Shown here: piece by piece, positions 3,001 through 60,897 of the stretch
How the letters are laid out: each line of letters opens with the position of its first letter
How positions within the stretch are numbered: the stretch's first letter is position 1
Source: Raillietiella orientalis
Lineage: Eukaryota
Direction of reading: 5' to 3'
NCBI GenBank assembly: GCA_036172245.1
Contig: JAYWIR010000045.1
Span: 1,426,001 to 1,490,000, forward strand
DNA: 64,000 nt
Made by a program: the position numbers and the translations under genes
The notes under the pieces: generated by a model
What the model saw: the letters and a program-made list of their open reading frames with translations, nothing else
Databases searched by the model: none
What the model was told of the DNA's origin: nothing

Positions 3001-6000
3001 AGAGGGGGGAAGGGAAGAGTGAAAAATTCCAGCTGCTGTTGAACTTTTGTTTTCCTGCGCGCGCGAGAGAGAGTGCATCTGAGGAGAGCATGACGCCCAT
3101 TCTTCGAGAGAAGTGCATTTCGTGGCGTTCTGTCGGAACCTGCACTCTTTCTCCCATCCTCATCGGGAATAGGGCGGGCTTCGACTGGGGAAATGACCCC
3201 AGCTCCTCTCTGGTCATTCGAGTTCACGTTGCGCGCACATTTTACGACGAATCTCCAGTAGGCAAGAGGCGCAAAGATGTTCGAGGGACCGAAGGTGCGC
3301 CGAATGGCATCTCCGGGTGCATGACGTGCTCTGCAGCGAGCCATGGTAAGCTCCCATAAGGCAAAGGGATGTCCAACTCTTCTAGCGCAGCGTTTCTTTG
3401 CGTCCAGGGAATCACTTCCGGATGAAGCGAGCCTCAAGGTCCTCCAGATCCAAACCCGACTGTAGGTCCAGAAAAGTTCATTCAGCATGTACGGAGGCAT
3501 CGCGGAGATGCTTCGCTTCACCGCACACCGACGTCTGACGGGACCGGAAGAGGTTGACTGAGTGTTCACTAGCTTTGTGGGCTTTTAGATCACAGAGACG
3601 TGAGATCCATGGAGATGAAACGGGAAACGATCAAGTCACTGGCGATTCCTGATTCCGTCGGGGGTGGGGGGGAAGAAAAGAAGCTTCTCTGCTTACCAAG
3701 CTCTGAAGGAAGACGTGAGGACACTCCTGTGGTACGAGGACGGCACTCAGATATGGATGATCATCTCTCTTCAGGTATGAGCGGCTCGTAGAGGAGAGAA
3801 GATAATTGGGATCCATCAAGCAGCCAGATTTTGAACCCATTCCGATCTCCAGTCCGTGCATTGGACCAGACTTCGGGGAACAGAAGAAGAAAGGTGATGG
3901 ACGGAATCAAAGCCACAAGAAAGGAGCCGTCCCCTGCGTGGACCCATTCGGGACACTCGTATCGGGGAGGAGGAAGAATGGGGACTGAAACTCCTGCAGC
4001 TGTGGGTCCCATTGCTCTTTCGATCAGCTCCTGAAGACTGAGCGTTCGTGCAGTTTGGAGTGGCAACGCTGCTCCGCATTCCTTCAACCTTCCCGCTGCT
4101 GCTGCGGAGGAAGCGAGAGAGTTTCCCTTTTCCTAAGCAGCAGACAGGAAGAAAATTCCGGAAGCTCGCCGGCGACACACAAAAAGGAAAAAGGATGAGG
4201 AAACGAGAATGGCCCGTAGTTCCAGAAGAGATCACCCGTCTAGTGGAAAGGGAGATTCCTCAGTGGAGCAGCAATCGCCAGGTGGGGAGAGGCGCGAACT
4301 GGGTGCGCAACCCAGCATCGTTCCCAAGAGAGGAAGCACGGGTGCGGGTCATTCTCGTTGCAGGTGAGTAACGGCATGGTCTCCAGTGCCTCCGGCTAAC
4401 AGTCTGGAACGGTAACGAGGAAGAATTCCAGGCACACAGATGAAAAAAAACTGCGGTGCAGAATTTTCAGGAACCGAAATCGCCTGAAGAAGAGAAAAAG
4501 GTAGCGAAATGTTTTTGCCCCGAGATCTCCTTCTTCGGCCTTCGTTTGACAAGTTGTCCAGCAATCGGTGCTCCTCCTGCGGGATTGTGATGGCATGGAG
4601 CGAAGCCAACAGAGGAACAAACGAAAGGGACGCCATCCAGTTCGCAGTTCGCTTCCTGAAGATAGCCACCAGATGGTCCCACCTGGAAGTTATTCGGACG
4701 GACATTGCTGGCGTCCTGCAACGGATACAAACTCCTTCCAGCGGGCAGTGATCCCCTCTCGACCCTCCAGAGTATTCTTATTTATTTTTATTCATTATTT
4801 TATTTTATTTTATTTTTTGCTCTTCTCATCTCCCTCAGCTGCCGAGGTGAGCGCAGCCGGTCTGCGTACCGGCCACCAGGCAGGTCCATGGAAGAATCGG
4901 TTGTGGTGGGACTACTTGCCCCACCACGGTAGTTGTAGCTTGATTGTGTTTTTTCAATAAACGCCCAACCGGGTGACCTGGCGTGACCAGGTGGCGACTC
5001 CGGAGTGGACTTGTCGAGGCGATGTGGTCAAGACTCCCGAAACAAAGATATCAGTTGGCAGCATCAGCTCGAACAGTAATAACGAGAGGGAATGAAGGAA
5101 AGAGAGAGGTCTCAGGAAGAGGTAACTTTTGCAACGAAACGGGATAAACCTTCGGCAAACGGGGGTAGGTGGGGGTGGGTGGAAATTAAACACGATCTCA
5201 TTGTAAGCCGCCATTTGATTGCGGCCTTGACGCGCACGTGCGTGAGAAGCTGCGTGAGGGGAACGGAGTTCAAGCTAGGAAAGCCCTCCCCTTCATACGC
5301 GTGTTTTCACGATCGCGTCTCAAAGCGTGCACACGCACACATACACAGAGAGAGGGAGAGAGATTTTTTTCCTTCACTTTTGAGCACCAACGTGGATCTT
5401 AACGGAAGAATTCCGCCTTTCCGTTGCTTGGCCACCACACGTGCTGAACGTTTCCGGTTGCAAGGATTCGCTGCTGCCAATTCCATCCGCTTCCTGCCGC
5501 TGTCCACCTCCTGTCGGGCGCTCCTCAGCCCCTCACAGTGCCTTTCCCGTCCTTCTCTTGATTCCGATCGTCAGGCATACGAATCCCAGAGAAGGGCGAT
5601 GAAATTTCGTCGTCACCTTGTCTGCCTGCTTGCTTCCCCCTCTTCCCGAAATCCTGCGCGGGAGACTGCGAACCTTCCGCTTCCTTTGAGCTGGAACCTG
5701 GATTCGTCTTCACACGGTTCCTCACTCTCGTTTCCAGCACCAAGAAAGGACTCTCTACCTACGAACAGGATTTTTTTCCCTTTGAAGCGCGCTCTGGAAT
5801 GGCTAGGCGGTTGCAGATTCTGCTGTGTTCTCGATTAGCGACGAGGAACGTTTGCAGATGGCGGGGACATCTGTCCATCCCCTCTTTTAGTTTTGAGGGG
5901 GAGATTCGTCGGCGTCGTTTATTTCGTCCGAGTGAAAGTAGACTTTTATCTCGGTAGACTTCGCAAGCATCTGCTCTGTATCAAATCTTCAAGGCATCAC

Positions 6001-7699
6001 CGAGGACGGTGCCTTCGAGCGTTCAACTGCTGATGCCTCAGCACGAAGGGAGCGGGCGCGCTTTTGGCACCTGCGATTTCACTTTCACGGCCCCGAGGCA
6101 GAGCACCTCGTGCGTGGGGATGTAGGGAACCCTGCGCCCGCGCAGCAGAGGGCGGGAGGAATCGACGGTTTTCTTCTTAGGGAAAGGCACCGATTATCGG
6201 CAATCCATCCATCCACCCCAATGCCCTCTCTCTTCCTTCCTTCGATGAAGGCTCTCCGGAAGTATGGCAGGTGCGGTTGTCTTGGGAACGGGGCTCTGAG
6301 ACGATCTCAAAACAGTTAGCTCATCGATCCGATCCCCTCTGCTCTTGGGAGCAAGACGAAATCCTGCCTGCACAAACAGGAAGAGGAAGCGGCAGCACTG
6401 CTGCCCTAGAAGCGACCTTCCGGTTTCCACCAATGCGGTGCGTCATGTCTTCGTGATCTTCATGCCGTCCGATTGCACTCTATCGCTTTCCCCCCCTGAG
6501 ATGCGCCACTATGGTCTTTTGGTTGCTGCGTTACCTGTCGTGCGACGTTGCTATGTTGCGTGCAGCGGTATGTCGACGATGCCAGCACCGGGAGATCTTG
6601 GTAATCGTACTCGGTGTTCTGGAACGGGCAGGGTCCACTTGCGTGCGTCTGCGGCGATGCTCTCGTTGCGGCGTGCGTGTGATCGATTTTCGGGTCGGAA
6701 AGGGACTTGCAGAGGATTCCCTTGAAGGTGATCGGCGCGCCTACTGTTCTTCTGGCTGTTGCCGATGCCACCACGCTTGGGCGTCTAGGAGATCGAGCTC
6801 GACGAGCAGCAGGTAGAGTTTCCTTCGGATCGTGCTGGGGACACGTGGAAGTATTCGGCTGCTCGATAACCCGGAAGTGCACGAAGAAGCTGGAGTAACA
6901 GGAAGGCGTGTCTTGCTGTCGTTTCGACCGAATCTTCACTGCGGGTCGGTGCAAGCAAAGATGTGCGACACTCGGGAGGCGGGGCACAGCAACCTGTAAG
7001 AAACGTGGCACTGGAACTTGCCGCCAAAACAATCCTCATTGGCCCGATCGCTGGGACAGGTCGCGGCCGAAGATGGAGAGGCCCACTGCCACTTGTCAAC
7101 TGCTGACCTCATGAGAGCAGCATCTTCCGAAGGCATCATCAGCATCCGATTCAGGAAGACTCGACCCTCATCCTTTCAGGTTGTTGTCGCCAGCATCACG
7201 GTTATTGAGTGCACCTGGTATCCGAGAGCTGTACTTCGGTTTTTGGTCCCTGGATGCGACCCACCTGCTGTCTTTGGAATCTCGCAAAGCACTACGTCAT
7301 CCAGCATCCACCGACCCCGATCTCCTCGCATCCTGTGCTCGGTAAGGAGTTTAAAATCGGCACTCATCTATCTTGAAGAATCAGCGACGAATCCTGGAAA
7401 ACACTGCACGCTTGTAGTCTCCCCCTCCACCCCAGTGGTCCAACTGCGGCAAAAAGATTGGCACTAGATCCATAGGAGGAAGGGGTTTGTTCTTTAGTTC
7501 AGGTGAGTCACGCCGTCTCCATAGGAAACGGCTCACCAAACGACTGCAGTTACTGTGCCCGTCATGGGCGTCCACCTCCTCCCCTTCTTTTCCTTCTCCC
7601 CCAGAGTCAGCACATTGTGATTCGGAACCACTTGCGTGAGACCACTGCAGTGTAACAGCCGGGGTCGCATCCCTCCAACCTCCCACCCCCTCTCTCCTT

Positions 7700-10600
7700 C
7701 CTCCTGCATCCCGACGTCCCTGCTTGCACGTGGTGGACGCGGCGGAGTGGACCCTGCATCCACGGGAAGGCGCTCCCGAAGGCACATCCACCGGGAGATA
7801 CGTGGAGCGCCTCCGCCGCCGACGCCACCACCACGCCTCGCCTCTTCCTTCCTGTAGCCCACCGTCTGCCGTCTCGAGGACTGCGGTCGTCACCGGCGAG
7901 TTTCCTCAAGAGTCCAAGGAAAGGAACGCGCAGGTATTTTCCTCCTTTCTTCCCTCTTCCCCTTTCCTCCCGCTCCTGCGTGCCTTCGGGGTCTCCGAGA
8001 GACCAATAAGAAAGCCTCTACATCACGCCGCGCGACTTCGCGCGGTCCGGCTCGTAAGAAACCACCGGCTGACCCTGTTCTTTGTCCGCACGCTCGTTTG
8101 TCGTCCCGCGGTTCACTGGAGATGATTTTCTCACGGGTGCGCACACGCGCCGAGTGATGCTGATCGCCTCGCGAGGGGAACCTCCATCGCGGGGGGGGGG
8201 AGGGGGAGGAAGCGAAGATGCTCACCCCGGGAATGCAGGGGAAAGGAGTTCCCACGGACCGTGTCCACTTGGAATGGCCGCAAAGTTCTTCCGGAATGAC
8301 CAGGAAGGAAGCGCGCGCCGCTCCCAGGGAAAAGAAGGAGCCTCCCTTTCCCTCGGAGCGGCACGCGCTTCTGGTTTCTTGCGCATGCTCAGATGTCTCC
8401 AGGTGAGGCTCGAGCGCAGCTCGCGCCGGTCCGCGAGGTCTCCGCGTCGTCCTCCGTCCTCCGAAGCAGCTCCGGCGACCGTCCAGCTGCGGGGGCGCGC
8501 ACACCTCCGCAAAAGCCAGGTGACTAAGGAAACGGACGCGGATGCGGTGCGCTCGAGGGAGGCACGCGCCTTGTCGTAACCTTGGGTTTCACCCGAAGCG
8601 AACCACGGAAACAGCGGGGGCCGGAAAGCGCCAATTTTCTGGAAGCCTCTCGTCGCACTAAGGCCCTGCGAGGAGATGTTCGATGGGAAGAAGAGAGCAG
8701 TCTCCGGACAGGCGGGAGGCACTCCCACCGGGAGTGGACCAGCCGGAAGCAGCGGGGATGGAGGGGAGGGTTGCAAAGATTTTTTTTTTTTTCCCACCAC
8801 AGAGTCCTGGGCCAGCAAGCAGGGGGAGTGCAGGGGGCATTCCAACGAACACCGGGGCACGCGCCCAGCTCATCCTCCGTCAGGTGAGATGATGTTGCTT
8901 GCCTCGGGGGCGAAAGCGACGCACCTTCTCCGCCTCCCCTCTCTCGGCCTACAGAGGCTGGCAGCGGGCGGTGCCGAAGAAAGTGAGGAGGAGGAAGGTG
9001 TAGCAGGCAAAGAGAGAGGGAGAGAGAGAGATGTGGACCCCCCCCTCTGGCCGCGGTGCCACTCTGCCACCCCTTTTCTCCGCTGCCGCCTCCGCCGCCT
9101 TCGGTGCGGCGGCGGCACAGCAGGCGGGTGGCTTGCGGAGGCCCCCGGTGGCCCAGTTCGCGTACGCCCACTCGGCAGCAACCAAACGCCGCGCGATCGC
9201 CGTGGCGGCCGGAGTTTTGCCGCTGCTGGCAGCGGTGCGTGAGGCCCTCGCGAGAAGCGGTGCGGGCGCAGCCGCGGCTGCTTCTAGATCTGCATCCGGT
9301 GGCGGCTGGCGGTGGTGCGTAGGGCCCGCTGCTTTTCCGTCTGCCCTCGGAGAGTGTGGACGCCTTGTCGGCCATGGACGCGCGCGCTCACCCAGGCGGA
9401 CGCGCTGAAGACGCCGGCAGTAACGCGCTCACGCAACGGTACGTGCCCTTTCACGCTCCCTCCCCCGTACGTTCCCTGGAACTGCCCGCTTGCCAGCCCC
9501 CTCGCGAGCTGACGACCTCCAGCTTTCCTCCTCCTCCGGCCGGCTTTCCCGGTGGAGGAGGAAGGGGAGGTAGGGGGACTTGTACCCCTTGATTCCCGGT
9601 TCTCCCGTCCCTTCCTGGTTCCGTTCGGCAGACGGAAAATCGGGCGTTTTTCCACGACGGGAATGCGGAAGAGGAAGGGCGCGGCTGGAAAAGAGGAATC
9701 AGGAGGCCTCCTCGCGGCTAAATAGGAGGCATCTCCTGCCCCTCTCCCAACGGTTCGCACCGCGCAACGTGCGGAGCGTCCACGGTGTCGGAAGGAAAGT
9801 GACTGGATAGAAAGAGGAGGGGGGGAGGAGAGAAGAGGAACCGGAGAGATTCCTTCCGACCCGTCACGGGTGTTGACGGATGAGGGAAGATTCGCTCCGT
9901 GAGTGCCGGGTGCGTGCGTCGGGGTCTGGCAAACAGGGGTGCGCCCCTCCTAGGAGGGAACCCGAGGAAACCCTGCGCCGTTCTCCTGCAGGTGCCTCGC
10001 AGGTATCAGCAGACACTTCCGGAACTAGGGAAGTTCACAGGAGCGGAAAAAGTCCTCCTCTCCGCGACGTGTGGGAGCCAGCGACCATTCCCGGGCGGAC
10101 GCCGCTCCCGATGGAAGCGGCCGAGACTGGGACGTTTGCCGCCACGCACTGAACCCACTCTTCGAGGGGAGGCGGGTGTGGGTGGGATGAGAGAACGCCT
10201 TGCTGGACCGGTGCTGAAGCGTGAAAGGGGAAGGTCTCCCGAGTCCCCTCCCCCCGCGCATGCGCGGTTCCTACGCCCTCGGGGAGCATGCACTGGCTCG
10301 GAGGTCCGCTTCCGCCTCGTCTGCTCGCTCTTACGCGCTCCTGATGCCATTCGCTCGCGAACGCACGTCTGCAGTTCCTCTTCCCGGCTTCGCTCCCGTC
10401 CAGGCGACAGCGATCCCCCCCCTCCCCCTCCAACAAGCCTCCGCGCGTCCGCTGCCAGCAGGGCGGTTCCCGCCCGGCGCTTTCTGGTGCGCCGCTTGGC
10501 CGGGTGCGGCGCTGCAGCCTCGCCAGCTTGCGCGACGTGTGTTGCCACGCGCCTTGTTTGTGGCGAATGGGTGTGTATGTGGTGCACGAGTATTTGTGGT

Positions 10601-10800
10601 GTGTGTGCGTTCGAGGTGTGTGTGTGGTGTATGAGCGACGCGTGTTGCCGGGCACATGTATGGGTGCGTGCGTGTGTGTGCTTTCCAGACGCGAAATGAC
10701 CCTTGCGTTTTTCCTGTCTCTCGCTCGGCCACTTTCCTTACCGACATCGTGCAGGCGCAGTCTGCGTTGCGCGATGCAGGACCGTTCGCGAGATTTCTTT
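7700..10800. other. GC/CpG-rich island (possible promoter or 5' region of an unidentified gene)
   Basis: Dense CG dinucleotides and G/C runs, with many overlapping low-complexity ORFs on both strands. A TG-rich stretch lies at about 10540-10680. Boundaries are approximate and no protein family was recognised. Confidence 0.45.
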
Positions 10801-11749
10801 TTTTTTTTTTTTTGAAAAAAGTCTCGGGATTTGCGCACAACTCATTCCACTGCTCGCGTGATCACTAGGGCGAGGGTGGACCAAAGCGGGCGAAAGGAGA
10901 TCTCGGGTAACCTGGAAAGTGCTGTGGTTGCGATTTCCTAGCAAACTGTTGCACTGATCCGGACATCGATCCGGATCAAGCGTTGCGACCACGCCCTTCA
11001 TTTGAGTTCGGTTCAACTGAAGACGTACTTCTTCGACACCCGTCGCTGACCACGGGACGAGCGAAGTCTTCGATCGAAACCCACAAATAGCAAGTGACCA
11101 TCGCTTTCTTCCACACTTTGCCGTGGCAAATTCCTCGAATGCTCTCTGCTGCTTATGATGAAAAAATTTCTTGCCTGTGGAGGAATGCAGTTCGTAGTCA
11201 TTTCCTTGGCGGGGTCATTCGGTGGGATGCAACGTGAATGCGCGGACCGTAGCCAATTATTCAGATTGAAATCGTTTTTTCTTGATTCAAGAACAAAGTA
11301 GGTGCAGACATCAAGCAGCGATGATGCTCTACGCTGGCTGCCGATCGTTTTTACGTGTGATTTGTGAACATCCCGCAGGCGCGCACTGGATGTCGAAATC
11401 CTCTGGATGGCGGTGGAAAGTTGACCAGTCGTAGTATCTCCGATGGCAATCCCCAGAAATATGAACAGAGAATGGAATCCGTGTTTCAAAGGAAATTCCA
11501 GAAGATCGCTGATTTTTCAAAGCCGAATAAGTGGATATTCGTTCATACGTTTCCGCTGAACGAACAGCATCGAGTATCTTTGAACTACCCTTGGTTTCCA
11601 GTTGCAAGTAAACTGTGTTTCCATGTTTCGTTTCTGTGTTCTGCTGAACAGATCCCTCGATGATTCTGGGTCAAGAAAAAAAGAAAGAAACAATTAGGGA
11701 TTGTCGGTGTCCCAGTACATATTTCAATTTCCTAACGATTATCAAATAG

Positions 11750-14730: not shown

Positions 14731-14768
<38 letters not shown>
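14731..14768. repeat. (AC)19 microsatellite
   Basis: Perfect AC dinucleotide run read directly from the sequence. Confidence 0.95.
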
Positions 14769-14771
<3 letters not shown>

Positions 14772-21085: not shown

Positions 21086-22342
21086 GTTGGTCAAGAACTC
21101 GGGCTTCATTCTGAAGCGATGGGCAGGTGAGATGCAAGATCTTTAATACCCAGGTTCGAAGGCTTCATCGGTTTCAGTAGCATTCCACATCCTAATCTAA
21201 GACTGACCTAAGACTTCGCTTTCATGTGTTCTCCGTTCCCTTGAGTCTTGAATTAAAAGATTTTATATCAGTGGCGATTATAAGATTGAAAACAGCTTGG
21301 ATAATTATCAATTTGATGCAAAACATCATTATGTAAGGGTAAATAGCAATGAATTCGTGGGTGTGCTTCAAAAGTATCCTTCACTGAACAACCACAAGAA
21401 AATAATGGACAACCACTCGCGAAGCAACGCTGAATATCATCCAAGCAAACAAAACTTCTTTGACTGAAATGGGTTGGTGAAGAAATGCTTGCATTTTTTT
21501 TTTTTTCTTCTGACGGTATCGAACCAAACCAGCAAAAGTCCATTTCGGGGCGTTGGCGTTTGTTCTCGCACTAGAAAAATCCTCGCGAGTTCAAAGGATG
21601 GAAATTCCTGATTCAAAGATTCAATGGAAAAAATCCATTTGCATGGAAGTTCGAAAGAGCAAATTTCAGACGACCGACAGACTCGCGTTGTACGAGAGTT
21701 TCCTCGATTCCCTTGCGCAATTTGACCCTAGCAATTCAATCCAGGCTCGCGTTCGGTCCGACGCCTGGGAAACCGCGTTGCCATGCCCACGCTCTCCGTT
21801 TCCGCTTCGGCGGTCATTGTTGGCTGGTTTCGACATCATGGGCTCGTGTGTTTACCGACACTTAGCAACTCATTGGCCCTTCGCTTGGCAATAGAAATGA
21901 GGGAATGCATTTCAAAATCAGTTTATATGCTTTCAAAAGCAACTTCACGAAATGCACCAAACAGGAAACTTCAAAAATATTTTGCTTTTAAAGTGTGCAG
22001 CTTTTTCATTTGAAGAAATACCTCTAATTATCGGACCAGCAGGTAGGTTAATTACCATAATCCATGACGATGCTATCCATCAGTTTTATTAGAATCAAAT
22101 TGAGAATACGTACGTACATATGCAAATGTTTACATGCGTATTTCCCATAGACTTTCCATGTATAATCTAATGTGCGCTCAGTATTAATGTCTTGTTGGTA
22201 TAGCCATCACTCTGATGATATATTAAATGGAGACAAGTAAATTATACTCACTGATTATTTGCACATTACAACATATATTTTCAGTGCATTAATGGCTCTG
22301 TGTTGAAGTTTTAGAAATTTTATTTTATATTCCAGCAAAGGA

Positions 22343-22412
22343 ATGCCTGTGAAATCAAAGCAATGCAACCCAATTACTGTGGAACCTTTTCGTGACCTCT
22401 ACATTCCTAGCA
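22343..22412 (+). CDS. Putative first coding exon of the giant repeat-protein gene
   Basis: Acceptor TTCCAG ending 22335, ATG at 22343 and strong donor GTAAGT at 22413. It reads MPVKSKQCNPITVEPFRDLYIPS, and its phase-1 end joins in frame to the phase-1 acceptor at 22973/22974. Confidence 0.45.
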
Positions 22413-22973
22413 GTAAGTATACTTATTAGTAGCTTAACTTATTTTTATAACTTAAATTTAAAAACACACACACAAATTGGTATGAAATCACTTATAAGCT
22501 ACACTTGATTTCTTAAGTACATTGAGAAAAGCTTACAATCAAACGAAATCAAATCATACGTAAAAGTCCAAACCAGTTGTGAACATCCATATTTAGACAA
22601 AGGTAATATAATCAAGATTACTGTTCATGAAAACTTTTTTTATTTCAAAAATTCCAAAGAACCTTTCCATTCAGCTGGAAATCTGCCAATCATAATTGAA
22701 AAGTACATTATCGGCCATATATCCATACATTGCAATATGTAGAATCTAAAAATTAGAAGCAATACACTCCACACCACAAAGTACGTAAAATAAAAACACA
22801 ACAAAAACTTGAATCGAAGCGAAATCCACCACAAAAATCTTTCAAGCCATATATACTTTTAAAACCCTAAACGGAAAAAGGCGTGAAGCAATTTAAATTC
22901 ATCGAGAACACGTTTAAAAATAGCGCCCAAACGTACAAGAAATACAGCAAAGACTAATAATTTATTTCAAAAG

Positions 22974-25900
22974 GAGATCCAGAACGAACAGAAGAGAAAA
23001 GCTCATATTTGGAAATCCACAAGAAACCAAGGGAAACAGCGGAACACAGCATTTATCAAAGTACAACGGTTGCTCAAGCAAATCGGATTCAGCAACAACA
23101 ATCCACAAAATCCATTCAAATAATAACTTTAGAAAAGACAGAATATGAAACAAAACAACAACCAAATCAAACGGAAAAAAAGAGTACCAATCAGTCACAG
23201 TCGTCAATGCATCGATACCACAAACACCATGAAAATAATACCAAACAACACCAAGCAATTCAGGAACCACTCTCACTCCAAGGAAACCGATACATCATGA
23301 ACACATCGTTAAAAGAGTCATTCCACGAGGAAACCAATCAATACGACACACATTATCAAACAAGGCACAATAGAAAAGATGAGGAAACAACCCACCACAC
23401 ATACAGCCGAAACAACATCCAGCGAGAAAAAGAAACAAACACAACAGTCGAACCAGAAATGAAAACTCTGACAAGCGACTCAAACTTCCAAGCCATGAAA
23501 CAAATCAAAAGGAACGCAAACGACGAAAAGTATTCAACAGAAAATACTAAAGATACACCACTAAAACACAAAGAAGCATCAGCTAAAGAAACCTCTAAAC
23601 AAATCAAGGATCTACACTACAAATGTGAGAGAATTCCTTGCTTCATTTATGCAGAAAATCTAAAACTTAACAAAATATGTGCAACCAGAAACCAACAGCT
23701 CACAGAAAAAATTTACCAAGCAAACGTACACACAAAGTTAAAACCAAAAGAAAAATCTCCAATACAAAAAAATCAAATATCAATTCTAGAAAGCACTATA
23801 AACAAAAACACACCAATTAAAAAATCAGAACACAAACCAACTACCAAACCAAAAACTCCCACAAATATACAAGAATCAATCAGTCCAAGAAGTACCAACA
23901 CAGGCAACCAAAGGCTCCAATACGGAGGATATCACAAGACAGCCCCTCCCACAGCTTACCCTCACAAGGAAAGCGAGTACGCCAGCGGCAGAACATTCAA
24001 TTCGAACGACATTAGAGAACATCAAGCAAAAAGCTCACCACCTATAATGCAAACAAACACACTAAAGGTGGAAGAACAATTCTCTTCCGTGTCGGTGGCG
24101 CGGAGCGAGTACCGGGAGTGCCAGGGAGAACGAGCGCCGCGGGTGGTGCACGCGGACCATCTGAAGCCGGAAGGCGACTTCGTGGCGCGGAGCACGTCCA
24201 GAGAGGACTTCAAGGAGAAACGTCGCGGCGACAGGGAGAAGGCGAAACGTCACCGGGACAACCTGAAGCTGGAAGGCGACTTCACCGGGGAGTCTGTGTC
24301 GCGGAGCGAGTTCAAGGAGGTGCGCGGCGATACAGCCGCGCGCGTGCCGCACCCTGACCACTTGGCGCCGGAAGGCGAGATGTCCACGACGACGAGCAGC
24401 CGTTCGGACTACAAGGAGGTGTCTGTGCGCCGGGAGTTGCCGAAGCGCCACGAGGACCACCTGAAGCCGGAAGGCTCCTTCGAAGGGCAGTCGGTTTCGA
24501 AGGCGGAGTACCAGGAGTGCCAGGGAGAGCGCGCCGCTCGAGTGGTGCACCCGGATCAGCTGAAGACGGAAGGAGAGTTTAGCGGCGTGAGCAGCACGAG
24601 CGCCGACTTCCGCCCGATGGTGTCTACCCCGCGAGCGAAACCGAAACCCCACGAAGACCACCTGAGGACGGAGGGGCCGTTCGTCGGAGAGACGGTGGCC
24701 ATGTCGGAGTACAAGGAGTTCCGCGGGGAGCGTGCTCCGCTGATCGTGCGACCGCAAGACGCCAATCTGCTGGTGGACGGCAGCTTTTCCGGTACGACGA
24801 CGACCGTGGAGGCGTACTGGTGGCCTCGCGGGGAACGCGAGAAGCCGGCAAGTCCATCGGACAACCTGAAGAGCGAGGGCGAGTTCGTCGTCGGCCGGAC
24901 GGTGGCCCAGAGCGACTTCCGGGAGTTTCGCGCGGACTGTCTTCATCCCTGCCGATCCTCGGACACGCCGAGCCGGAAAGAATGGCTGCGGGCAGACAAG
25001 TCGTTCGTGGGCGCTCCTCCTCTCCTGCGGCCGAGCATCTGGCTGCCCACGAAGACAACCTTCGAACGGAAGGCCCCTTCGAGGGACAGTCGGTTTCGAT
25101 GACGGAGTACCGGGAGTACCGCGGGGAGCGTGCTGCCCGTGTGGTTCACGGTGACCACCTGAAGGTTGAAGGCGACTTCGTGGGAGTGAGCAGCGCGTCG
25201 ATGGACTACGCCGCTCCGCAGCCGAGCCCCCGGGACAAGCCGAAGCGACGTGAGGACAACCTGAAGGTGGAAGGGGATTTCTCCCCGGTGTCGGTGGCGC
25301 GGAGCGAGTACCGGGAGTGCCAGGGAGACCGAGCGCCGCGGGTGGTGCACGCGGACCATCTGAAGCCGGAAGGCGACTTCGTGGCGCAGAGCACGTCCAG
25401 AGAGGACTTCAAGGAGAAACGTCGCGGCGACAGGGAGAAGGCGAAACGTCACCGGGACAACCTGAAGCTGGAAGGCGACTTCACCGGGGAGTCTGTGTCG
25501 CGGAGCGAGTTCAAGGAGGTGCGCGGCGATACAGCCGCGCGCGTGCCGCACCCTGACCACTTGGCGCCGGAAGGCGAGATGTCCACGACGACGAGCAGCC
25601 GTTCGGACTACAAGGAGGTGTCTGTGCGCCGGGAGTTGCCGAAGCGCCACGAGGACCACCTGAAGCCGGAAGGCTCCTTCGAAGGGCAGTCGGTTTCGAA
25701 GGCGGAGTACCAGGAGTGCCAGGGAGAGCGCGCCGCTCGAGTGGTGCACCCGGATCAGCTGAAGACGGAAGGAGAGTTTAGCGGCGTGAGCAGCACGAGC
25801 GCCGACTTCCGCCCGATGGTGTCTACCCCGCGAGCGAAACCGAAACCCCACGAAGATCACCTGAGGACGGAGGGGCCGTTCGTCGGAGAGACGGTGGCCA

Positions 25901-28900
25901 TGTCGGAGTACAAGGAGTTCCGCGGGGAGCGTGCTCCGCTGATCGTGCACCCGGACAATCTGCTGGTGGACGGCAGCTTTTCCGGTACGACGACGACCGT
26001 GGAGGCGTACCAGGGCTCTCGCGGGGAACGCGAGAAGCCGGTGCGTCCATCGGACAACCTGAAGAGCGAGGGCGAGTTCGTCGTCGGCCGGACGGTGGCC
26101 CAGAGCGACTTCCGGGAGTTTCGCGCGGACAGATCTGCGCGCGTGGTACACTCGGACACGCTGAAGCTGGAGCTGCTGGCGAAGAGCCGTACGAGCGAAG
26201 ACTACAAGGCGTCCCCCGTGCAGGCACGCGAGCACCCGGCTGCCCACGAAGACAACCTTCGAACGGAAGGCCCCTCGAGGGACAGTCGGTTTCGATGACG
26301 GAGTACCGGGAGTACCGCGGGGAGCGTGCTGCCCGTGTGGTTCACGGTGACCACCTGAAGGTTGAAGGCGACTTCGTGGGAGTGAGCAGCGCGTCGATGG
26401 ACTACGCCGCTCCGCAGCCGAGCCCCCGGGACAAGCCGAAGCGACGTGAGGACAACCTGAAGGTGGAAGGGGATTTCTCCCCGGTGTCGGTGGCGCGGAG
26501 CGAGTACCGGGAGTGCCAGGGAGACCGAGCGCCGCGGGTGGTGCACGCGGACCATCTGAAGCCGGAAGGCGACTTCGTGGCGCGGAGCACGTCCAGAGAG
26601 GACTTCAAGGAGAAACGTCGCGGCGACAGGGAGAAGGCGAAACGTCACCGGGACAACCTGAAGCTGGAAGGCGACTTCACCGGGGAGTCTGTGTCGCGGA
26701 GCGAGTTCAAGGAGGTGCGCGGGGATACAGCCGCGCGCGTGCCGCACCCTGACCACTTGGCGCCGGAGGGCGAGATGTCCACGACGACGAGCAGCCGTTC
26801 GGACTACAAGGAGGTGTCTGTGCGCCGGGAGTTGCCGAAGCGCCACGAGGACCATCTGAAGCCGGAAGGCTCCTTCGAAGGGCAGTCGGTTTCGAAGGCG
26901 GAGTACCAGGAGTGCCAGGGAGAGCGCGCCGCTCGAGTGGTGCACCCGGATCAGCTGAAGACGGAAGGAGAGTTTAGCGGCGTGAGCAGCACGAGCGCCG
27001 ACTTCCGCCCGATGGTGTCTACCCCGCGAGCGAAACCGAAACCCCACGAAGATCACCTGAGGACGGAGGGGCCGTTCGTCGGAGAGACGGTGGCCATGTC
27101 GGAGTACAAGGAGTTCCGCGGGGAGCGTGCTCCGCTGATCGTGCACCCGGACAATCTGCTGGTGGACGGCAGCTTTTCCGGTACGACGACGACCGTGGAG
27201 GCGTACCAGGGCTCTCGCGGGGAACGCGAGAAGCCGGTGCGTCCATCGGACAACCTGAAGAGCGAGGGCGAGTTCGTCGTCGGCCGGACGGTGGCCCAGA
27301 GCGACTTCCGGGAGTTTCGCGCGGACAGATCTGCGCGCGTGGTACACTCGGACACGCTGAAGCTGGAAGGGGAGCTGCTGGCGAAGAGCCGTACGAGCGA
27401 AGACTACAAGGCGTCCCCCGTGCAGGCACGCGAGCACCCGGCTGCCCACGAAGACAACCTTCGAACGGAAGGCCCCTTCGAGGGACAGTCGGTTTCGATG
27501 ACGGAGTACCGGGAGTACCGCGGGGAGCGTGCTGCCCGTGTGGTTCACGGTGACCACCTGAAGGTTGAAGGCGACTTCGTGGGAGTGAGCAGCGCGTCGA
27601 TGGACTACGCCGCTCCGCAGCCGAGCCCCCGGGACAAGCCGAAGCGACGTGAGGACAACCTGAAGGTGGAAGGGGATTTCTCCCCGGTGACGGTGGCGCG
27701 GAGCGAGTACCGGGAGTGCCAGGGAGACCGAGCGCCGCGGGTGGTGCACGCGGACCATCTGAAGCCGGAAGGCGACTTCGTGGCGCGGAGCACGTCCAGA
27801 GAGGACTTCAAGGAGAAACGTCGCGGCGACAGGGAGAAGGCGAAACGTCACCGGGACAACCTGAAGCTGGAAGGCGACGTCACCGGGGAGTCTGTGTCGC
27901 GGAGCGAGTTCAAGGAGGTGCGCGGGGATACAGCCGCGCGCGTGCCGCACCCTGACCACTTGGCGCCGGAGGGCGAGATGTCCACGACGACGAGCAGCCG
28001 TTCGGACTACAAGGAGGTGTCTGTGCGCCGGGAGTTGCCGAAGCGCCACGAGGACCACCTGAAGCCGGAAGGCTCCTTCGAAGGGCAGTCGGTTTCGAAG
28101 GCGGAGTACCAGGAGTGCCAGGGAGAGCGCGCCGCTCGAGTGGTGCACCCGGATCAGCTGAAGACGGAAGGAGAGTTTAGCGGCGTGAGCAGCACGAGCG
28201 CCGACTTCCGCCCGATGGTGTCTACCCCGCGAGCGAAACCGAAACCCCACGAAGATCACCTGAGGACGGAGGGGCCGTTCGTCGGAGAGACAGTGGCCAT
28301 GTCGGAGTACAAGGAGTTCCGCGGGGAGCGTGCTCCGCTGATCGTGCACCCGGACAACCTGCTGGTGGACGGCAGCCTTTCCGGGTACGACGACGACCGT
28401 GGAGGCGTACCAGCCCTCGCGGGGAACGCGAGAAGCCGGTGCGTCCATCGGACAACCTGAAGAGCGAGGGCGAGTTCGTCGTCGGCCGGACGGTGGCCCA
28501 GAGCGACTTCCGGGAGTTTCGCGCGGACAGATCTGCGCGCGTGGTACACTCGGACACGCTGAAGCTGGAAGGGGAGCTGCTGGCGAAGAGCCGTACGAGC
28601 GAAGACTACAAGGCGTCCCCCGTGCAGGCACGCGAGCACCCGGCTGCCCACGAAGACAACCTTCGAACGGAAGGCCCCTTCGAGGGACAGTCGGTTTCGA
28701 TGACGGAGTACCGGGAGTACCGCGGGGAGCGTGCTGCCCGTGTGGTTCACGGTGACCACCTGAAGGTTGAAGGCACTTCGTGGGAGGAGCGCGTCGATGG
28801 ACTACGCCGCTCCGCAGCCGAGCCCCCTGGGACAAGCCGAAGCGACGTGAGGACGGATCAGCGCGGCGGATTTCTCCCGTCGCGCTGTGGCGCGGAGCAG

Positions 28901-31630
28901 CACCGGGAGTGCCAGGGGAGACCGAGCGCCGCGGGTGGTGCACGCGGACCATCTGAAGCCGGAAGGCGACTTCGTGGCGCAGGAGCACGTCCAGAGAGGA
29001 CTTCAAGGAGAAACGTCGCGGCGGACAGGGAGAAGGCGAAACGTCACCGGGACAACCTGAAGCTGGAAGGCGACTTCTACCGGGGAGTCTGTGTCGCGGA
29101 GCGAGTTCAAGGAGGTGCGCGGGGATACAGCCGCGCGCGTGCCGCACCCTGACCACTTGGCGCCGGAGGGCGAGATGTCCACGACGACGAGCAGCCGTTC
29201 GGACTACAAGGAGGTGTCTGTGCGCCGGGAGTTGCCGAAGCGCCACGAGGACCACCTGAAGCCGGAAGGCTCCTTCGAAGGGCAGTCGGTTTCGAAGGCG
29301 GAGTACCAGGAGTGCCAGGGAGAGCGCGCCGCTCGAGTGGTGCACCCGGATCAGCTGAAGACGGAAGGAGAGTTTAGCGGCGTGAGCAGCACGAGCGCTG
29401 ACTTCCGCCCGATGGTGTCTACCCCGCGAGCGAAACCGGAAACCCCACGAAGCTGATCATCGGAGGACGGAGGGGCCGTTCGTCGGAGAGACGGTGGCCA
29501 TGTCGGAGTACAAGGAGTTCCGCGGGGAGCGTGCTCCGCTGATCGTGCACCCGGACAATCTGCTGGTGGACGGCAGCTTTTCCGGTACGACGACGACCGT
29601 GGAGGCGTACCAGGGCTCTCGCGGGGAACGCGAGAAGCCGGTGCGTCCATCGGACAACCTGAAGAGCGAGGGCGAGTTCGTCGTCGGCCGGACGGTGGCC
29701 CAGAGCGACTTCCGGGAGTTTCGCGCGGACAGATCTGCGCGCGTGGTACACTCGGACACGCTGAAGCTGGAAGGGGAGCTGCTGGCGAAGAGCCGTACGA
29801 GCGAAGACTACAAGGCGTCCCCCGTGCAGGCACGCGAGCACCCGGCTGCCCACGAAGACAACCTTCGAACGGAAGGCCCCTTCGAGGGACAGTCGGTTTC
29901 GATGACGGAGTACCGGGAGTACCGCGGGGAGGTGTCGCCCGTGTGGTTCACGAAGACCACCTGAAGGTTGAAGGCGACTTCGTGGGAGTGAGCAGCGCGT
30001 CGATGGACTACGCCGCTCCGCAGCCGAGCCCCCGGGACAAGCCGCCGAAGGATGCGAGGACAACCTGAAGGTGGAAGGGATTTTCCCGGTGTCGGTGGCG
30101 CGGAGCGAGTACCGGGAGTGCCAGGGAGACCGAGCGCCGCGGGTGGGTGCACGCGGACCATCTGAAGCCGGAAGGCGATTCTGTGGCGCAGAGCACGTCC
30201 AGAGAGGACTTCAAGGAGAAACGTCGCGGCGACAGGGAGAAGGCGAAACGTCACCGGGACAACCTGAAGCTGGAAGGCGACTTCACCGGGGAGTCTGTGT
30301 CGCGGAGCTAGTTCAAGGAGGTGCGCGGCGATGCAGCATCGCGCGTGCCGCACCCTGACCACTTGGCGCTGGAAGGCGAGATGGCCACGACGACGAGCAG
30401 CCGCTCGGACCACAAGGAGGTGTCTGTGCGCCGGGAGTTGCCAAAGCGCCACGAGGACCACCTGAGCCGGAAGGCTCCTTCGAAGGGCNNNNNNNNNNNN
30501 NNNNNNNNNNNNNNNNNNNNNNNNNNNNNNNNNNNNNNNNNNNNNNNNNNNNNNNNNNNNNNNNNNNNNNNNNNNNNNNNNNNNNNNGTGAGCACGTTGC
30601 TCAGGTGGTGCATGCTGGCGAGCTGAAAGCGGATGGCTTTGCTCTGGGTTTAGATAAGTCGGTTGTTTTGAAGGGTGAGTCAAAATCTCAGCTGAATGGT
30701 GTTGGTTCGAGTTCAATTGGGAGTTTGAATGCGGTAAAGTGCAATGTGATGGGAGGTAAAGTTTCGCTTTCGAAATGTGTGAAGAAAACTGTTGCTGATA
30801 AGGAGGTTCCGTGTTCGGCTGAAGTTGTTGATTCTCATCGTGTGAGGGATATTGGTGGAGTGGATGTTCCGGATAGTATGGTTTCGAATTGTGGTGCTTC
30901 TGCTAGTGTGTTGTCTGTTGCTTCCATTGTATCGAAGGTTCCTGTGGATGATGCGAGAGCTATGTATGTTTCTGATTCGCCTTCGAGCTGTGCCTCTGTG
31001 GATAAGATTTCGATTTCTCAGTCTGGGAAAGGTGTGGATAATATTCGTGTTGGTTATAAAAGTAGTGCTTATTTAAATCGGTCACTACGTTCTACTCCTT
31101 TGTTTAATAATGATGAAAGTAGAGGTGGGTTCCTTGCTAACAAAATGAGGAATACTGGAAGCTCTATCTGTTTTGATTCCTCTATTGAGGTTGTTGGTTG
31201 TGAGGTAAAGCGTTCTAATCTTTCCAGTGCTCATGTTTCCTCAAAGTCTGAAGGTTTTGAAAAGAGTTTGAGGAATTTTTCTTCTTATGGCTCTGTCACT
31301 AAATCTTGTGTTTCGTCTAAGTCTACCGAGGCGGGTCGTTCTTTAACTGTTCACTCGAGTTTGTTTGGTTCGGAACCTCATGTTAAGGAACCCTTATCTG
31401 TTTCTGGTAAGAATGGATGTTTGTCGGGGTGTGTGGATTTGAAGAAACAGGAAAATTTCCATTCATCATCAAGTACTTGGACGGATGCTGAATTTGTTAG
31501 GAAACCTAGGAAGCGTTGGGCGGAGAGTGAGAAATTTACCGAATTCTCTTTCAAATCTTCTGGATACAATGTCAGAAGTTCTTCTGAATCTTTGTTCCTG
31601 AATCCGTTTGCTGGGAAAAATTCATCCTAG
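22974..31630 (+). CDS. Giant exon of a large repeat protein with SAXO/MAP6 (STOP) Mn-like repeats; frameshifts and a gap in the array are probably partly assembly errors
   Basis: Branch-like CTAAT at about 22954 and acceptor AAG at 22971-22973. Consecutive + ORFs (23009..25102, 24820..26298, 26295..28460, 28439..29152, 29091..29456, 29494..29964, 30605..31630) encode the same 33-34-aa unit, consensus D[HN]LKxEGxFxGx[ST]xxxx[ED][YF]. The [ST]-x4/5-[YF] core after F-x-G resembles Mn motifs of SAXO proteins. Strong GC3 codon bias in this frame; stop TAG at 31628-31630. The family assignment is by motif recognition only. Confidence 0.75.
24063..30488 (+). repeat. Coding tandem array, 1203-bp (401-aa) period, about 5.3 copies, each made of 12 units of 33-34 aa
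   Basis: Identical shadow ORFs recur at 24118, 25317, 26513 and 27716 (spacing 1199, 1196, 1203). Unit lengths 33,34,33,34,33,33,33,34,33,33,34,34 sum to 401 aa. Copies are nearly identical at the DNA level. Confidence 0.97.
30489..30587. other. Assembly gap (99 N) at the right end of the tandem array
   Basis: Run of N read directly; the true array length is therefore unknown. Confidence 0.99.
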
Positions 31631-34585
31631 CCTTTGACTTTACCGAAATTGATTTTAGATTGGTCATCGGTGTCGTTCTGATTGGAATTTCGAATGAATC
31701 AGTTCAGCGTTTTCCCACCTCTGCGCGCGCCTCCTTTATTGAGTTACCCCTTTCGGTGTTGCCCGACTTTGTTTCCTGGAGCAATGGCTTCCAAAACAAG
31801 ATATCTACGAGGATGCGCAGCATGAAAAACGGTGCTTTCTTCGATGGGCTTGAGGCCTCTCGTGTCTGTGCTTTTTCTGCGTTTTTAAACTAATGCGACA
31901 GTTTGTTGGCGAAATTTTTGCTATGCTGTTACTGCGTTCTTTTGGGTTGCAAATGGAGAACGTGTGATTGCCATATTTACCATATTGCTCATGCAGAGGG
32001 TCGTTTCACACTTACGAAGTGTCTTGTTGGATCTTTGAATTCGGTTAGACATTTTTGTTTGTTTGTTTGTTTTTGATGTACATCATTTGTTTCAAATGCT
32101 TTATACTCCAATAAAACATTGAATATATTTTGCTTACATGGGAATTGCTCATTGCTTTTATTTTGAAATACTGAATTCCAAAATAATTTGTTTTTGCGAG
32201 TAAATGAAATTACTTTTGTTATTTTTTTTCTATTTATTTCTCCATGGTTTTTTTTCCTCGATAATGTCACTGCAAAGGATCCCTCCGCTTTGAAAATTTT
32301 TGGCACCGCCAGAATCTTCTATGCCGAAGGTCAGTCAAAGGCAGTGGGAATTATGTCCAGTGTATTATGATTATTTCGTAATTTCTTATTTTCTTTTGTT
32401 GAGTTGAGGAAACATCTCCTTATGATAACTGGCCTATGCCTCTTGCAAAATGGATTTATTATCACACTCATTAAGTCCCTTATTCTCTGTATCCATATTC
32501 CCACCGAATAATGATGATCTATAACTGTGATAATCTGTTTATTCTGCTTCGAATACAGCAGCAGGTGGTGGCAACAAAATTATTGTAATTAGGATGATAA
32601 AATGTTGAATTCTATCCACTCGTCTATCCATTGAATGTATTCGATAATAGCCATTATGCGAAATTCAGTGTAACCCGATATGTTGAGGCACTTCAACAGT
32701 CTCCATGGCGGCTTATCCGAACCTATCTGCTGTTATCTGCATTCATCGCAAACTACAAGTCCTCCCCGTCATCATCCTTTGGAGATGATTCAGCACATAT
32801 GCAAGAAATGATAATCCAGGCTTGATTTTCCGCAAAAGCATTATGTCAAGGTTTCTTCCATTTTTCAGTCTTCACCGACACCTGTGGATACTTTTTTGGT
32901 CACATTCTTCGCCTTAGCACTAGTTGCAAAGCGTGATTTTCTTTTTCTAAATATCACTCCTCTTATATTGACGAAAGCCCTCAGCCAGCTTGATTTGTTA
33001 TCCTTCTGATAATGCTGACGCTGTGCAAAATGCGGGGTTTCCAAATTCGATCTAGATATGTGTTTAATCCACAAGATGGCTGATGATAATGCATGCTGGT
33101 CGCCTATGGATTTTTCTCCCCACCAGGGGAGCTTATCCATTAGTACGCTCTTTGCCATCGCACTGAAGATTCCGATTTCGCTCCTTAAGTGCTTCTAAAT
33201 TCTCTTGGTCCGGCGGGGAGGTACATTCGAAGTCTGTTTCAGTGCTCTCTGAAATCACCTTCTCCAGATTCTTGTCTCTAAAAGCAAATCTATCAGAGAA
33301 TCCGAAGCCAAACCTACTACCAAGCGAACTGTGTGATATGAGGAATTGTCACCATCTCGGAAGGTGATTGCCAGTCTTTCCGAACGACATCAAAGCAGAT
33401 GTCATTTGGAAAGAACGACACCGGCAAGAAAGTTTATTCGGGAGTGTCTTCCCCTCATTCTGCTCTTGATTTCCATATCTCTACTGCTGCTGAGCACTCG
33501 GAGGATCCGAAAGGAACCCACATCCTCCTCAGCTTTCTGAACCGTAGTCTGGCACCCTTCTTTCGGAACTGCCCTGCTTGATGGTGTGACCTCCGATCCC
33601 CACAAACTGCACCGTCTTGCAGCTTGAGTTTCTCGCCCGGCAGTTTTATTTCTCCTCCAGAGGTTTTCTTCTTCTTGCTTGCCACAGAACAATGGAAGCT
33701 TCGCCGGAAGAGAGCTGGAAGCAGAGAACGAATAACAAAGGCGCACAAATGAAAGGACCGACGGAGCCCATTTTGGTATTCGAAGATGGAATTCCTTAAT
33801 TGTGCGTAAAAGCAAAACTTGCAAAGCGTGCAGTGGCTGCATGCTTAAAGCTTCCGGAAAAAAGCAGAATCCGAAAATGCGAAAGAATCAACCACCTGCA
33901 TCGAGGAATAAGAAGCCCAGTTTTTACTGCAACGGCCAATTAAGTGTGGGGAATTGTCGGAATTTCAAAGCATGCTTTCTGCACATTGGAACGGTAATTC
34001 ATGGTATACATTGAGAGGTTAGGAATCTGTCTCGCCCGAAGGATACAACGAACTCAAATTAATCATTTGTTCTTGACAAGTGGCACATGATCGAATAACT
34101 CACGGAGTTAAGATCAAAGACCCATCAAGAAACTGATATTGTTTGACACACACACTTGTGCAATTTCTATTGTCTTCCATAAAATTCATCTGTGCTAACA
34201 AATTCACTGTGAGAACAGTTCGCTTCAGAAGAGGAAAACATGTTACCGCCAAACTATCAAACACAACGCATCTTATTTATTTAAGTAGTCATTTTTCCTT
34301 TTTCAGCCTTCGTTGCTTACGTTGCTTTTTATTTGCTTTTCACGTGTGGTTTCATCACAATTTACAGTCATTAATGAGTCTTTCACGGGGGGATGGGAGT
34401 TCAGGATGACTTCATCTCTGGTGAGGAGCAGTAGCAACAGTATTTTTCATAGATACGGCTTATAGTTTCTTGTGATTGTTTGTCACTTGCCCGATTTTTC
34501 CATGGTCACAACCATTCCAGCAGCAATTACTGAATAGTTATTCAGTCCTACTCAGATAGGATACACACATCCTGTTTGATCTCAC

Positions 34586-40062: not shown

Positions 40063-41850
<1,788 letters not shown>

Positions 41851-60644: not shown

Positions 60645-60891
60645 GCGGCGTTCCTTTCCCTCACACCTGCCTGTCGAAGGCTTCTCTTCAATGTTCCCTT
60701 CCTCATCCCCTCTCTTTTTCTTCTTCCCTCCCTCCCTTTTTCTTCTTCCGCTCCCTCCATCTTCCTGTCCTCCATCTTTCGTCACGGCCCTCCTTCGCGG
60801 GGCAGGGAAGAGTCTGGGGGAGGAGGAGGTCAAGGAGGATGTCCTGTCTCTCCTTCCCACACGCCGCTTCCTCTCGCCCTAGTTTTCGGCT

Positions 60892-60897
60892 AATAAA
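60892..60897 (+). promoter_or_regulatory. Candidate polyadenylation signal of the protease-homolog gene
   Basis: AATAAA about 250 nt after the stop codon, followed by a T-rich tract at about 60940. Confidence 0.55.

Follow-up and report, generated by a model that had tools for sequence, protein, structure and literature searches.

Mirror-image strand asymmetries around a focal site are known at CpG islands and replication origins and at meiotic hotspots, as weak differences in rate. Around human CpG islands the ratio of A>G to T>C was reported as 0.934 upstream and 1.09 downstream, constant over hundreds of kilobases, with symmetric C>T and G>A rates and with GC-biased conversion inferred inside the island (Polak & Arndt 2009, PMC2817419). 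At human meiotic double-strand break (DSB) hotspots a mirror asymmetry within about 2 kb of the focal site was attributed to single-stranded recombination intermediates; to the left of the break the forward strand is single-stranded, and C>N and A>N mutations are described on that side (Hinch et al. 2023, PMC7615360). Mitochondrial DNA carries an asymmetry in which an AC-rich L strand is opposed to a GT-rich H strand and the amino/keto bias dominates third codon positions (PMC1794132). Here we analysed a 64,000-nt stretch of Raillietiella orientalis DNA (GenBank assembly GCA_036172245.1, contig JAYWIR010000045.1, positions 1,426,001 to 1,490,000 of the forward strand), which we call the window and in which all coordinates below are counted. 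It contains a GC-rich coding tandem array of the SAXO/Mn-repeat type that is flanked by an A/C-rich coding tail on its left and by a G/T-rich coding tail on its right.

The locus resembles a human CpG island in that a GC- and CpG-rich centre separates two domains of opposite sign in the complementary transitions, and the T>C excess upstream and A>G excess downstream that were described on the reference strand (PMC2817419) have the orientation seen here. It differs in that both transition pairs are affected, the skew is near-saturated and confined to 1.6-1.8 kb, and it lies in coding DNA. With the DSB hotspots it shares the mirror form and the range, but the short-range sign is opposite, and the hotspot data concern the rates of de novo or rare variants and not fixed composition (PMC7615360). 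In magnitude, and in the dominance of an amino/keto bias at third codon positions, the mitochondrial asymmetry is comparable, but it is organellar, genome-wide and of one polarity (PMC1794132); nothing suggests a mitochondrial origin of the locus. Among the top-ranked full-text literature matches there was no report of a saturated mirror skew flanking a coding tandem array.

Mirror-image skew on the two sides of the array

We expressed the skew as S = (T-A)/(T+A) + (G-C)/(G+C) and followed the A+C content in 600-nt windows moved in steps of 100 nt. Over the 64 kb, A+C averaged 0.4925 (standard deviation 0.0426), and both extremes turned out to be the flanks of the array, with a maximum of 0.745 on the left and a minimum of 0.347 on the right. 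All 14 windows above 0.62 started between 22401 and 23701, and all four windows below 0.38 between 30601 and 30901. S amounted to -0.73 for 22480-24056 and to +0.46 for 30588-32200, corresponding to an upward jump across the array, compared with a mean of +0.045 (standard deviation 0.081, range -0.13 to +0.33) in 204 windows of 1.5 kb outside the locus. The preliminary description had rested on hand counts for 23101-23160 (A34 C11 T11 G4) and 30841-30900 (G23 T22 A10 C5) and on a GC-rich array between them; the counts are exact, and the GC content of the array is.66.

The left domain comprises a non-coding stretch (22414..22960, + strand; A.44 C.19 G.11 T.27), which has stops in all frames and may be an intron, a 5′ untranslated region (UTR) or a promoter, and the N-terminal coding tail (22961..24056, + strand), an open frame without stop. 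The homogenised array follows (24057..30488, + strand) and ends at a scaffold gap of 99 N (30489..30587), the assembled length of which is nominal. Beyond the gap, the C-terminal coding tail (30590..31630, + strand) ends with TAG and is followed by a T-rich non-coding stretch (31631..32400, + strand), probably the 3′ UTR, with an AATAAA motif at 32110-32115. The base composition was A.48 C.25 G.13 T.15 for the left open reading frame (ORF; 23009-24050) and A.23 C.15 G.27 T.35 for the right ORF (30590-31627). Accordingly expressed as S, the left side gave -0.50 in its non-coding part (22414-22960) and about -0.85 in the ORF, a reversed sign for a + strand gene, and the right side gave +0.36 to +0.51. 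The skew thus extends into the non-coding flanks, as had been claimed, with the value of +0.36 (31631-32130) belonging to the downstream stretch.

Both skewed domains are of similar length (about 22,400-24,057 and 30,588-about 32,400) and have clear limits. In 200-nt bins on the left, A+C stayed at 0.69-0.76 from the array to 23000 and then fell to 0.67, 0.61, 0.58 and, by 22200-22399, 0.51; on the right it remained at 0.30-0.43 out to 32389 and then rose to 0.47 and 0.51. At 1.6-1.8 kb from the array the skew is gone, A+C being about 0.5 by about 22,300 and about 32,500. Beyond these points the left and right parts of the window do not differ, S being +0.03 over 1-22300 and +0.05 over 32500-64000 without a step. 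Within both ORFs the skew is even, since the variance of A+C per 15-60 nt and the run lengths equal those of dinucleotide shuffles. On both sides the codon usage flips (on the left from A-rich to GC-rich) inside the first degenerate Mn repeat beyond the homogenised block.

The skew is present at silent sites. A+C at codon positions 1/2/3 of the left tail was.70/.76/.72, a uniform composition, and G+T in the right tail was.64/.45/.78, so that a restriction to the first two positions, which would have pointed to the protein, is not what we found. The right tail is G/T-rich chiefly at positions 1 and 3 (position 3: T.52 G.27 A.14 C.08). In the left tail, codons ending in a pyrimidine (NNY) used C49/T27, codons ending in a purine (NNR) A84/G19, and four-fold degenerate sites A67 C22 T17 G8; the respective numbers in the right tail were C10/T59, A24/G28 and T100 G44 A17 C14, the latter equivalent to an AT skew of about -0.70 and a GC skew of about +0.52. 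A synonymous (A/G)x(C/T) index was about 8-11 for the left tail and 0.05-0.15 for the right tail. When the four-fold sites of the right tail were compared with the reverse complement of those of the left tail, the compositions were indistinguishable (chi-square 2.7, 3 degrees of freedom, p=0.43), which bears out the earlier statement that the two flanks carry the same bias on opposite strands.

As a control we used the neighbouring GOLPH3 (GPP34) gene (40063..41847, + strand), which has four exon segments and 277 codons (Pfam E 5.5e-21, 1.6e-8, 3.5e-5). Its codons are AT-ending and its four-fold sites nearly strand-symmetric (A34 T32 G19 C14), and the four-fold sites of the two tails differ from them with p=5e-7 and 3e-4. 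Intron 1 of GOLPH3 (40252-41075) is itself G/T-rich on the sense strand (S +0.35) and makes 39.5-41.3 kb the third-highest skew of the window. The S of +0.36 in the downstream non-coding stretch of the array gene is about the same and hence not unusual; transcribed DNA of this genome ordinarily has a skew of this size on its sense strand.

The amino acids follow the nucleotides. The left tail consists of K12 T12 E9 Q9 S8 N8 % among its leading residues, that is, of the amino acids encoded by A/C-rich codons, and the right tail of S20 V11 K8 G8 %. The view of a nucleotide-level bias that reshapes the protein holds, given the skew at synonymous sites and the like composition of the three codon positions on the left.

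The array, its protein and the two tails

The array has a length of at least 6.4 kb and consists of five full copies of 1196-1206 bp and a further 431 bp, which makes 5.4 or more copies of a 1.2-kb unit. Every unit encodes 12 Mn-type sub-repeats with a spacing of 33-34 amino acids (aa), and interior copies are 99-100% identical (over 300 nt). The base composition is A.21 C.28 G.38 T.13, with GC-ending codons and a CpG observed/expected ratio of 1.18, compared with 0.76-0.94 in the background. The array protein P0003 matched the Pfam family SAXO1-2 (PF05217) with 30.1 bits (gathering cut-off 26.5, E 3.3e-7); P0001, comprising the N-tail and one unit, had no Pfam match at E<=1. The signature of the Mn unit, [TS]-[TS]-x(4)-[YF] (PMC10973386), occurred five times in the 401-aa array unit, with 0.54 expected and none of 2000 shuffles reaching five. 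The window is insect-like: translations of array units matched insect proteins only, 14 of the 8000 scored candidates reaching E<=0.001, with a protein of Coptotermes formosanus (34% identity, E 1.4e-55) at the top. The locus is thus predicted to be a large coding region of a gene for a SAXO/Mn-repeat, microtubule-inner-protein-like protein. It is like the SAXO/MAP6 Mn-repeat microtubule inner proteins in passing the PF05217 threshold and carrying the signature, and unlike them in that the array is built from a homogenised super-unit of 12 repeats with 99-100% identity between copies and in that the tails are not Mn repeats.

The P0003 ORF (26295-28460) also matched the Pfam family Integrase_p58_C (40.2 bits, cut-off 27) through repeated matches to 15 of 35 positions; this match is most likely spurious and caused by the tandem repeat. 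The insect homologues share a conserved C-terminal block (…GPCPA…PFKHTRDT…), for which tblastn with five of the 14 proteins revealed no counterpart in the window; the sole match of these five outside the array was weak (E 0.77). No other large array was found in the 64-kb window.

The preliminary description had placed array and tails within one reading frame. Both tails are indeed open on the + strand; the array, however, is frameshifted as assembled, and the gap intervenes. The assembled array is broken into at least eight overlapping + strand ORF pieces in differing frames, and five of the six copies have 7-16 indel columns each. Indels and substitutions relative to the consensus are clustered in copies 1, 5 and 6 (24950-25100, 28852-30488), and there is one in-frame TAG near 30309. 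Because their density peaks near the gap, the clusters suggest assembly or consensus errors and not a pseudogene.

Degenerate Mn repeats mark both edges of the array. On the left, such a repeat (…NTLKVEEQF…; 24017..24103, + strand) was matched by a hidden Markov model at residues 337-365 of P0001 (E 0.011), and on the right the C-terminal tail opens with one. Its first codons past the gap, EHVAQVVHAGELKADGF, read as a degenerate Mn repeat on the + strand, and the orientation of the right contig is internally supported for this reason, which removes the concern that the right flank might be mis-oriented.

Both tails are real open frames of about 347 codons each: neither has an in-frame stop, compared with 17.5 (left) and 21.0 (right) expected from 500 shuffles, and the remaining five frames contain 12-19 stops in the left tail and 10-36 in the right tail. 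In-frame ATGs of the left tail are located at 23207, 23297, 23459, 23495 and 24047. An exon-like segment on the + strand at 22336-22413 has a strong acceptor (…tattccag), a donor (gtaagta) and an open frame, KGMPVKSKQCNPITVEPFRDLYIPS. To join it to the left ORF, an acceptor in the correct phase and with a pyrimidine tract was sought but not found. Its likeness by eye to the C-terminal block of the homologues gave no BLASTP alignment.

We further explored what the tails might have derived from. As Mn repeats they were rejected both by signature, which occurred at chance counts (N-tail 1, P 0.53; C-tail 2, P 0.27), and by a profile of 12 own and 44 homologue repeats, with an N-tail score that was reached by 24% of 400 shuffles and no match for the C-tail. 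No homologue of the N-tail was found among 754 and 1006 word-sharing candidates, and none of 1.84 billion representatives was a homologue of the C-tail. Look-alikes of the N-tail, SPM1 and SAXO1, reached only 0.78-0.80, below the lead level of 0.9; the look-alike search with the C-tail returned nothing meaningful. The tails are not inverted copies either, with no inverted repeats and only scattered short blastn matches, and when the left tail was aligned with the reverse complement of the right tail, the best local score was reached by 46 of 200 shuffles, which shows no specific complementarity. The left composition equals that of the array with about two thirds of G changed to A, but no homology backs such an origin: local alignments in collapsed alphabets, in which the tails were treated as G>A or C>T hypermutated array units, gave z values of -0.4 to +1.2 (100 shuffles each). 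No further copies of the tail sequences exist in the 64-kb window, and two metagenome scans revealed no relative. One DNA sequencing run, X1, contains 7% of the words and gave two short contigs identical to the window and three short unlike pieces, which leave most of the stretch uncovered. The tails appear to be orphan, lineage-specific sequences that are weakly constrained apart from staying open.

Explanations for the skew

We tentatively favour, at somewhat less than even confidence, the explanation that the skew results from a short-range, array-centred and strand-specific substitution pressure on weakly constrained tails. That the skew is mutational, and what drives it, we infer. Frequent recombination and gene conversion would keep the array uniform, with conversion in the array probably being GC-biased. 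In the adjacent DNA, a strand-asymmetric pressure at the nucleotide level would set the base composition of the tails and thereby their amino-acid composition; it would have an equal end-point on both sides while acting on opposite strands, and the mutational bias would be centred on the array with a reach of about 1.6-1.8 kb each way. The right bias would parallel the ordinary sense-strand asymmetry (T>A, G>C), for which S of +0.35 in one control intron is the only local reference, at 3-4 times its strength, and the left bias would be its reversal.

Two sources are candidates by sign and range, divergent germline transcription from the CpG-rich array and outward repair synthesis. It had been argued that transcription alone would give one polarity. 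This is right for a single transcript, but divergent transcription out of a CpG-rich array would give two, and such transcription would fit both the sign and the bounded range. The right skewed domain ends about 300 nt beyond the AATAAA at 32110. For divergent transcription to apply, antisense would have to exceed sense transcripts on the left, and the asymmetry would have to be 3-4 times as strong as in the control intron. Outward synthesis resembling break-induced replication (BIR) would also have the right sign; the BIR-linked strand-asymmetric component that has been described is long-range, extending over more than 10 kb (PMC7615360).

Several observations weigh against a substitution pressure of this kind. 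It is deduced from a single locus, and the magnitude of the skew tops every published nuclear replication or transcription asymmetry that we found, being 3-4 times that of the neighbouring intron. Since the sense mRNA spans the left tail too, germ-line transcription of that tail would have to be mainly antisense. In the edge copies, substitutions relative to the consensus of the array had no directional excess (u1: G>A 10, C>T 10, T>C 7, A>G 9; u6: G>A 4, C>T 5, T>C 3, A>G 1). Spacers rich in K/N/T/Q/H/P (0.42-0.50 of residues) are present in the termite and firefly homologues, and the left skew at positions 1-2 may in part reflect a trait of this protein family. Both domains have a microsatellite-like run of matching orientation at their outer edge (22460, 32052), which fits the decayed simple sequence considered below.

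A bolder version of the substitution-pressure explanation, to which we give little credence, states that a hyper-recombining coding array leaves a mirror strand asymmetry of mitochondrial scale in nuclear DNA. Most mutations entering the neighbouring 1.6-1.8 kb would then stem from germ-line synthesis or transcription that recurrently starts in the array and runs outward in a strand-specific manner, and the two tails would have been rewritten into an A/C-type and a G/T-type amino-acid alphabet. The polarity, the reverse of a resection footprint, would be as expected if BIR-like synthesis leaves the nascent strand single-stranded.

Alternatively, the skew could be a relic of simple sequence, an explanation that we consider unlikely but the strongest of the competitors. 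The tails would have grown by slippage or local duplication of (AC)n/(AAC)n/(AAAC)n in the left tail and of the complementary (GT)n/(GTT)n/(GTTT)n in the right one; while the repeats decayed, their composition would have been kept, and the opposite orientation would be chance (1 in 2). The composition of the left tail is independent of frame, as this explanation would have it, and the edge runs, 17 nt of A/C only at 22460 within the upstream non-coding stretch and 24 nt of G/T only at 32052, exceed those in shuffles (P 0.003-0.013). The class is present in the window as a perfect (AC)19.5 microsatellite at 14731-14769, the longest A/C-only run of the window (44 nt), and k-mers would decay several times faster than composition, such that the skew may outlast the repeats. 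The tails themselves, however, showed no cryptic simplicity. Repeated-word z values over dinucleotide shuffles were -1.0/-0.2/-1.2 (left) and 1.6/1.3/2.0 (right) for k=6/8/10, thus between -1.2 and +2.0, compared with 3.2-10.3 in a positive-control region; there was no patchiness, and Tandem Repeats Finder (TRF) returned 0 rows. In the right tail, moreover, the skew is strongest at silent position 3 and absent from position 2, the opposite of what neutral decay predicts, and the equal magnitude of the two four-fold compositions would have to be a coincidence.

Selection in place of mutation is, in our estimate, slightly less probable still. Here, the protein would need a polar, disordered N-terminal spacer rich in K/T/Q/N/H and an S/V/G-rich C-terminal spacer, and/or selection would favour an mRNA that is A/C-rich and unstructured towards its 5′ end and G/U-rich towards its 3′ end, with the mirror being incidental. 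The share of K/N/T/Q/H/P in the spacers of the termite (P0004) and firefly (P0011) homologues is close to the 0.47-0.55 in the N-tail, and the RNA of the left tail is predicted to be almost unstructured, with -31 and -33 kcal/mol per 400 nt compared with -78 to -96 for three background pieces. In the right tail position 2 is unskewed and serine makes up 20% of residues, and therefore protein-level selection does act there. Against selection as the source of the skew, two-fold and four-fold synonymous sites are skewed as much as replacement sites or more, and the adjoining non-coding DNA is skewed too. The share of V/G/F/C/W in the first 150 residues of the C-tail, 0.31-0.33, compares with at most 0.26 in the homologues, and the lack of specific complementarity between the tails also speaks against it.

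An assembly artefact, with the right contig mis-joined or taken from a paralogous array, or with erroneous flank sequence, is very unlikely. The gap, the many indels in the copies nearest to it and the absence of read evidence across it leave room for such an error. The right contig itself, however, starts with the + strand degenerate Mn repeat and runs from there into the G/T-rich ORF, so that, however the contigs are joined, the coding strand is G/T-rich 3′ of an Mn array. Each tail is an intact ORF, and the two short contigs from X1, which may be the source sample, match 21935-22085 and 22903-23073 without a single difference.

A fixed bidirectional replication origin inside the array, which the preliminary description had offered as one possibility, is not supported and appears highly improbable. 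Leading/lagging asymmetry would give G/T on the right and A/C on the left, the upward jump has the direction reported around human CpG islands (PMC2817419) and for N-domains (PMC3320577), and the array is CpG-island-like in its GC content and CpG ratio. Replication asymmetry should, however, persist over the replicon, and the skew vanishes within 1.6-1.8 kb, leaving flanks of 22.3 kb and 31.5 kb nearly symmetric; the implied rate asymmetry would also be about 30 times the published one on a log scale. Recurrent DSBs in the array, with both flanks resected over 1-2 kb and the exposed single strand damaged, are least probable of all: the geometry and range match the human hotspots and the homogenised array implies frequent recombination, but the sign is opposite, the left + strand being enriched in A (.48) and C (.25) and not depleted. 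The earlier remark that the polarity is contrary to bidirectional resection is in line with the strand orientation at human meiotic hotspots (PMC7615360).

Neighbouring genes and meaning of the locus

The window alternates between GC-rich and AT-rich (GC 0.30-0.40) domains. The regions 1-11000 and 58000-62000 are GC-rich blocks (0.52-0.67) with long ORFs on both strands, and 11 ORFs tested in 1-11 kb had no Pfam match. Apart from GOLPH3, we identified a gene for a trypsin-like serine protease at 58729-60406 (+ strand; Trypsin E 1.7e-6), with GC-ending codons (position 3: C.45 G.34). It contains a coding minisatellite at 59191-59408 with periods of 15/30/63 nt, and a possible clip domain (CLIP_1, E 0.0088) scored 16.4 bits, below the cut-off of 26.

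With a single locus, the mutational explanation of the tails is favoured but unproven. Compared with the weak rate differences known at CpG islands, origins and meiotic hotspots, the mirror asymmetry described here is near-saturated and short-range, with a sign opposite to that of resection. If the tails are decayed simple sequence or were shaped by selection, they are ordinary biased disordered tails, and the locus is a caution that a striking local skew needs comparative data first. If the skew is mutational, the locus would naturally record which of the two strands is exposed or copied near an unstable coding minisatellite, and a local asymmetry in DNA metabolism could override codon usage and dictate the amino acids of the tails within one gene.

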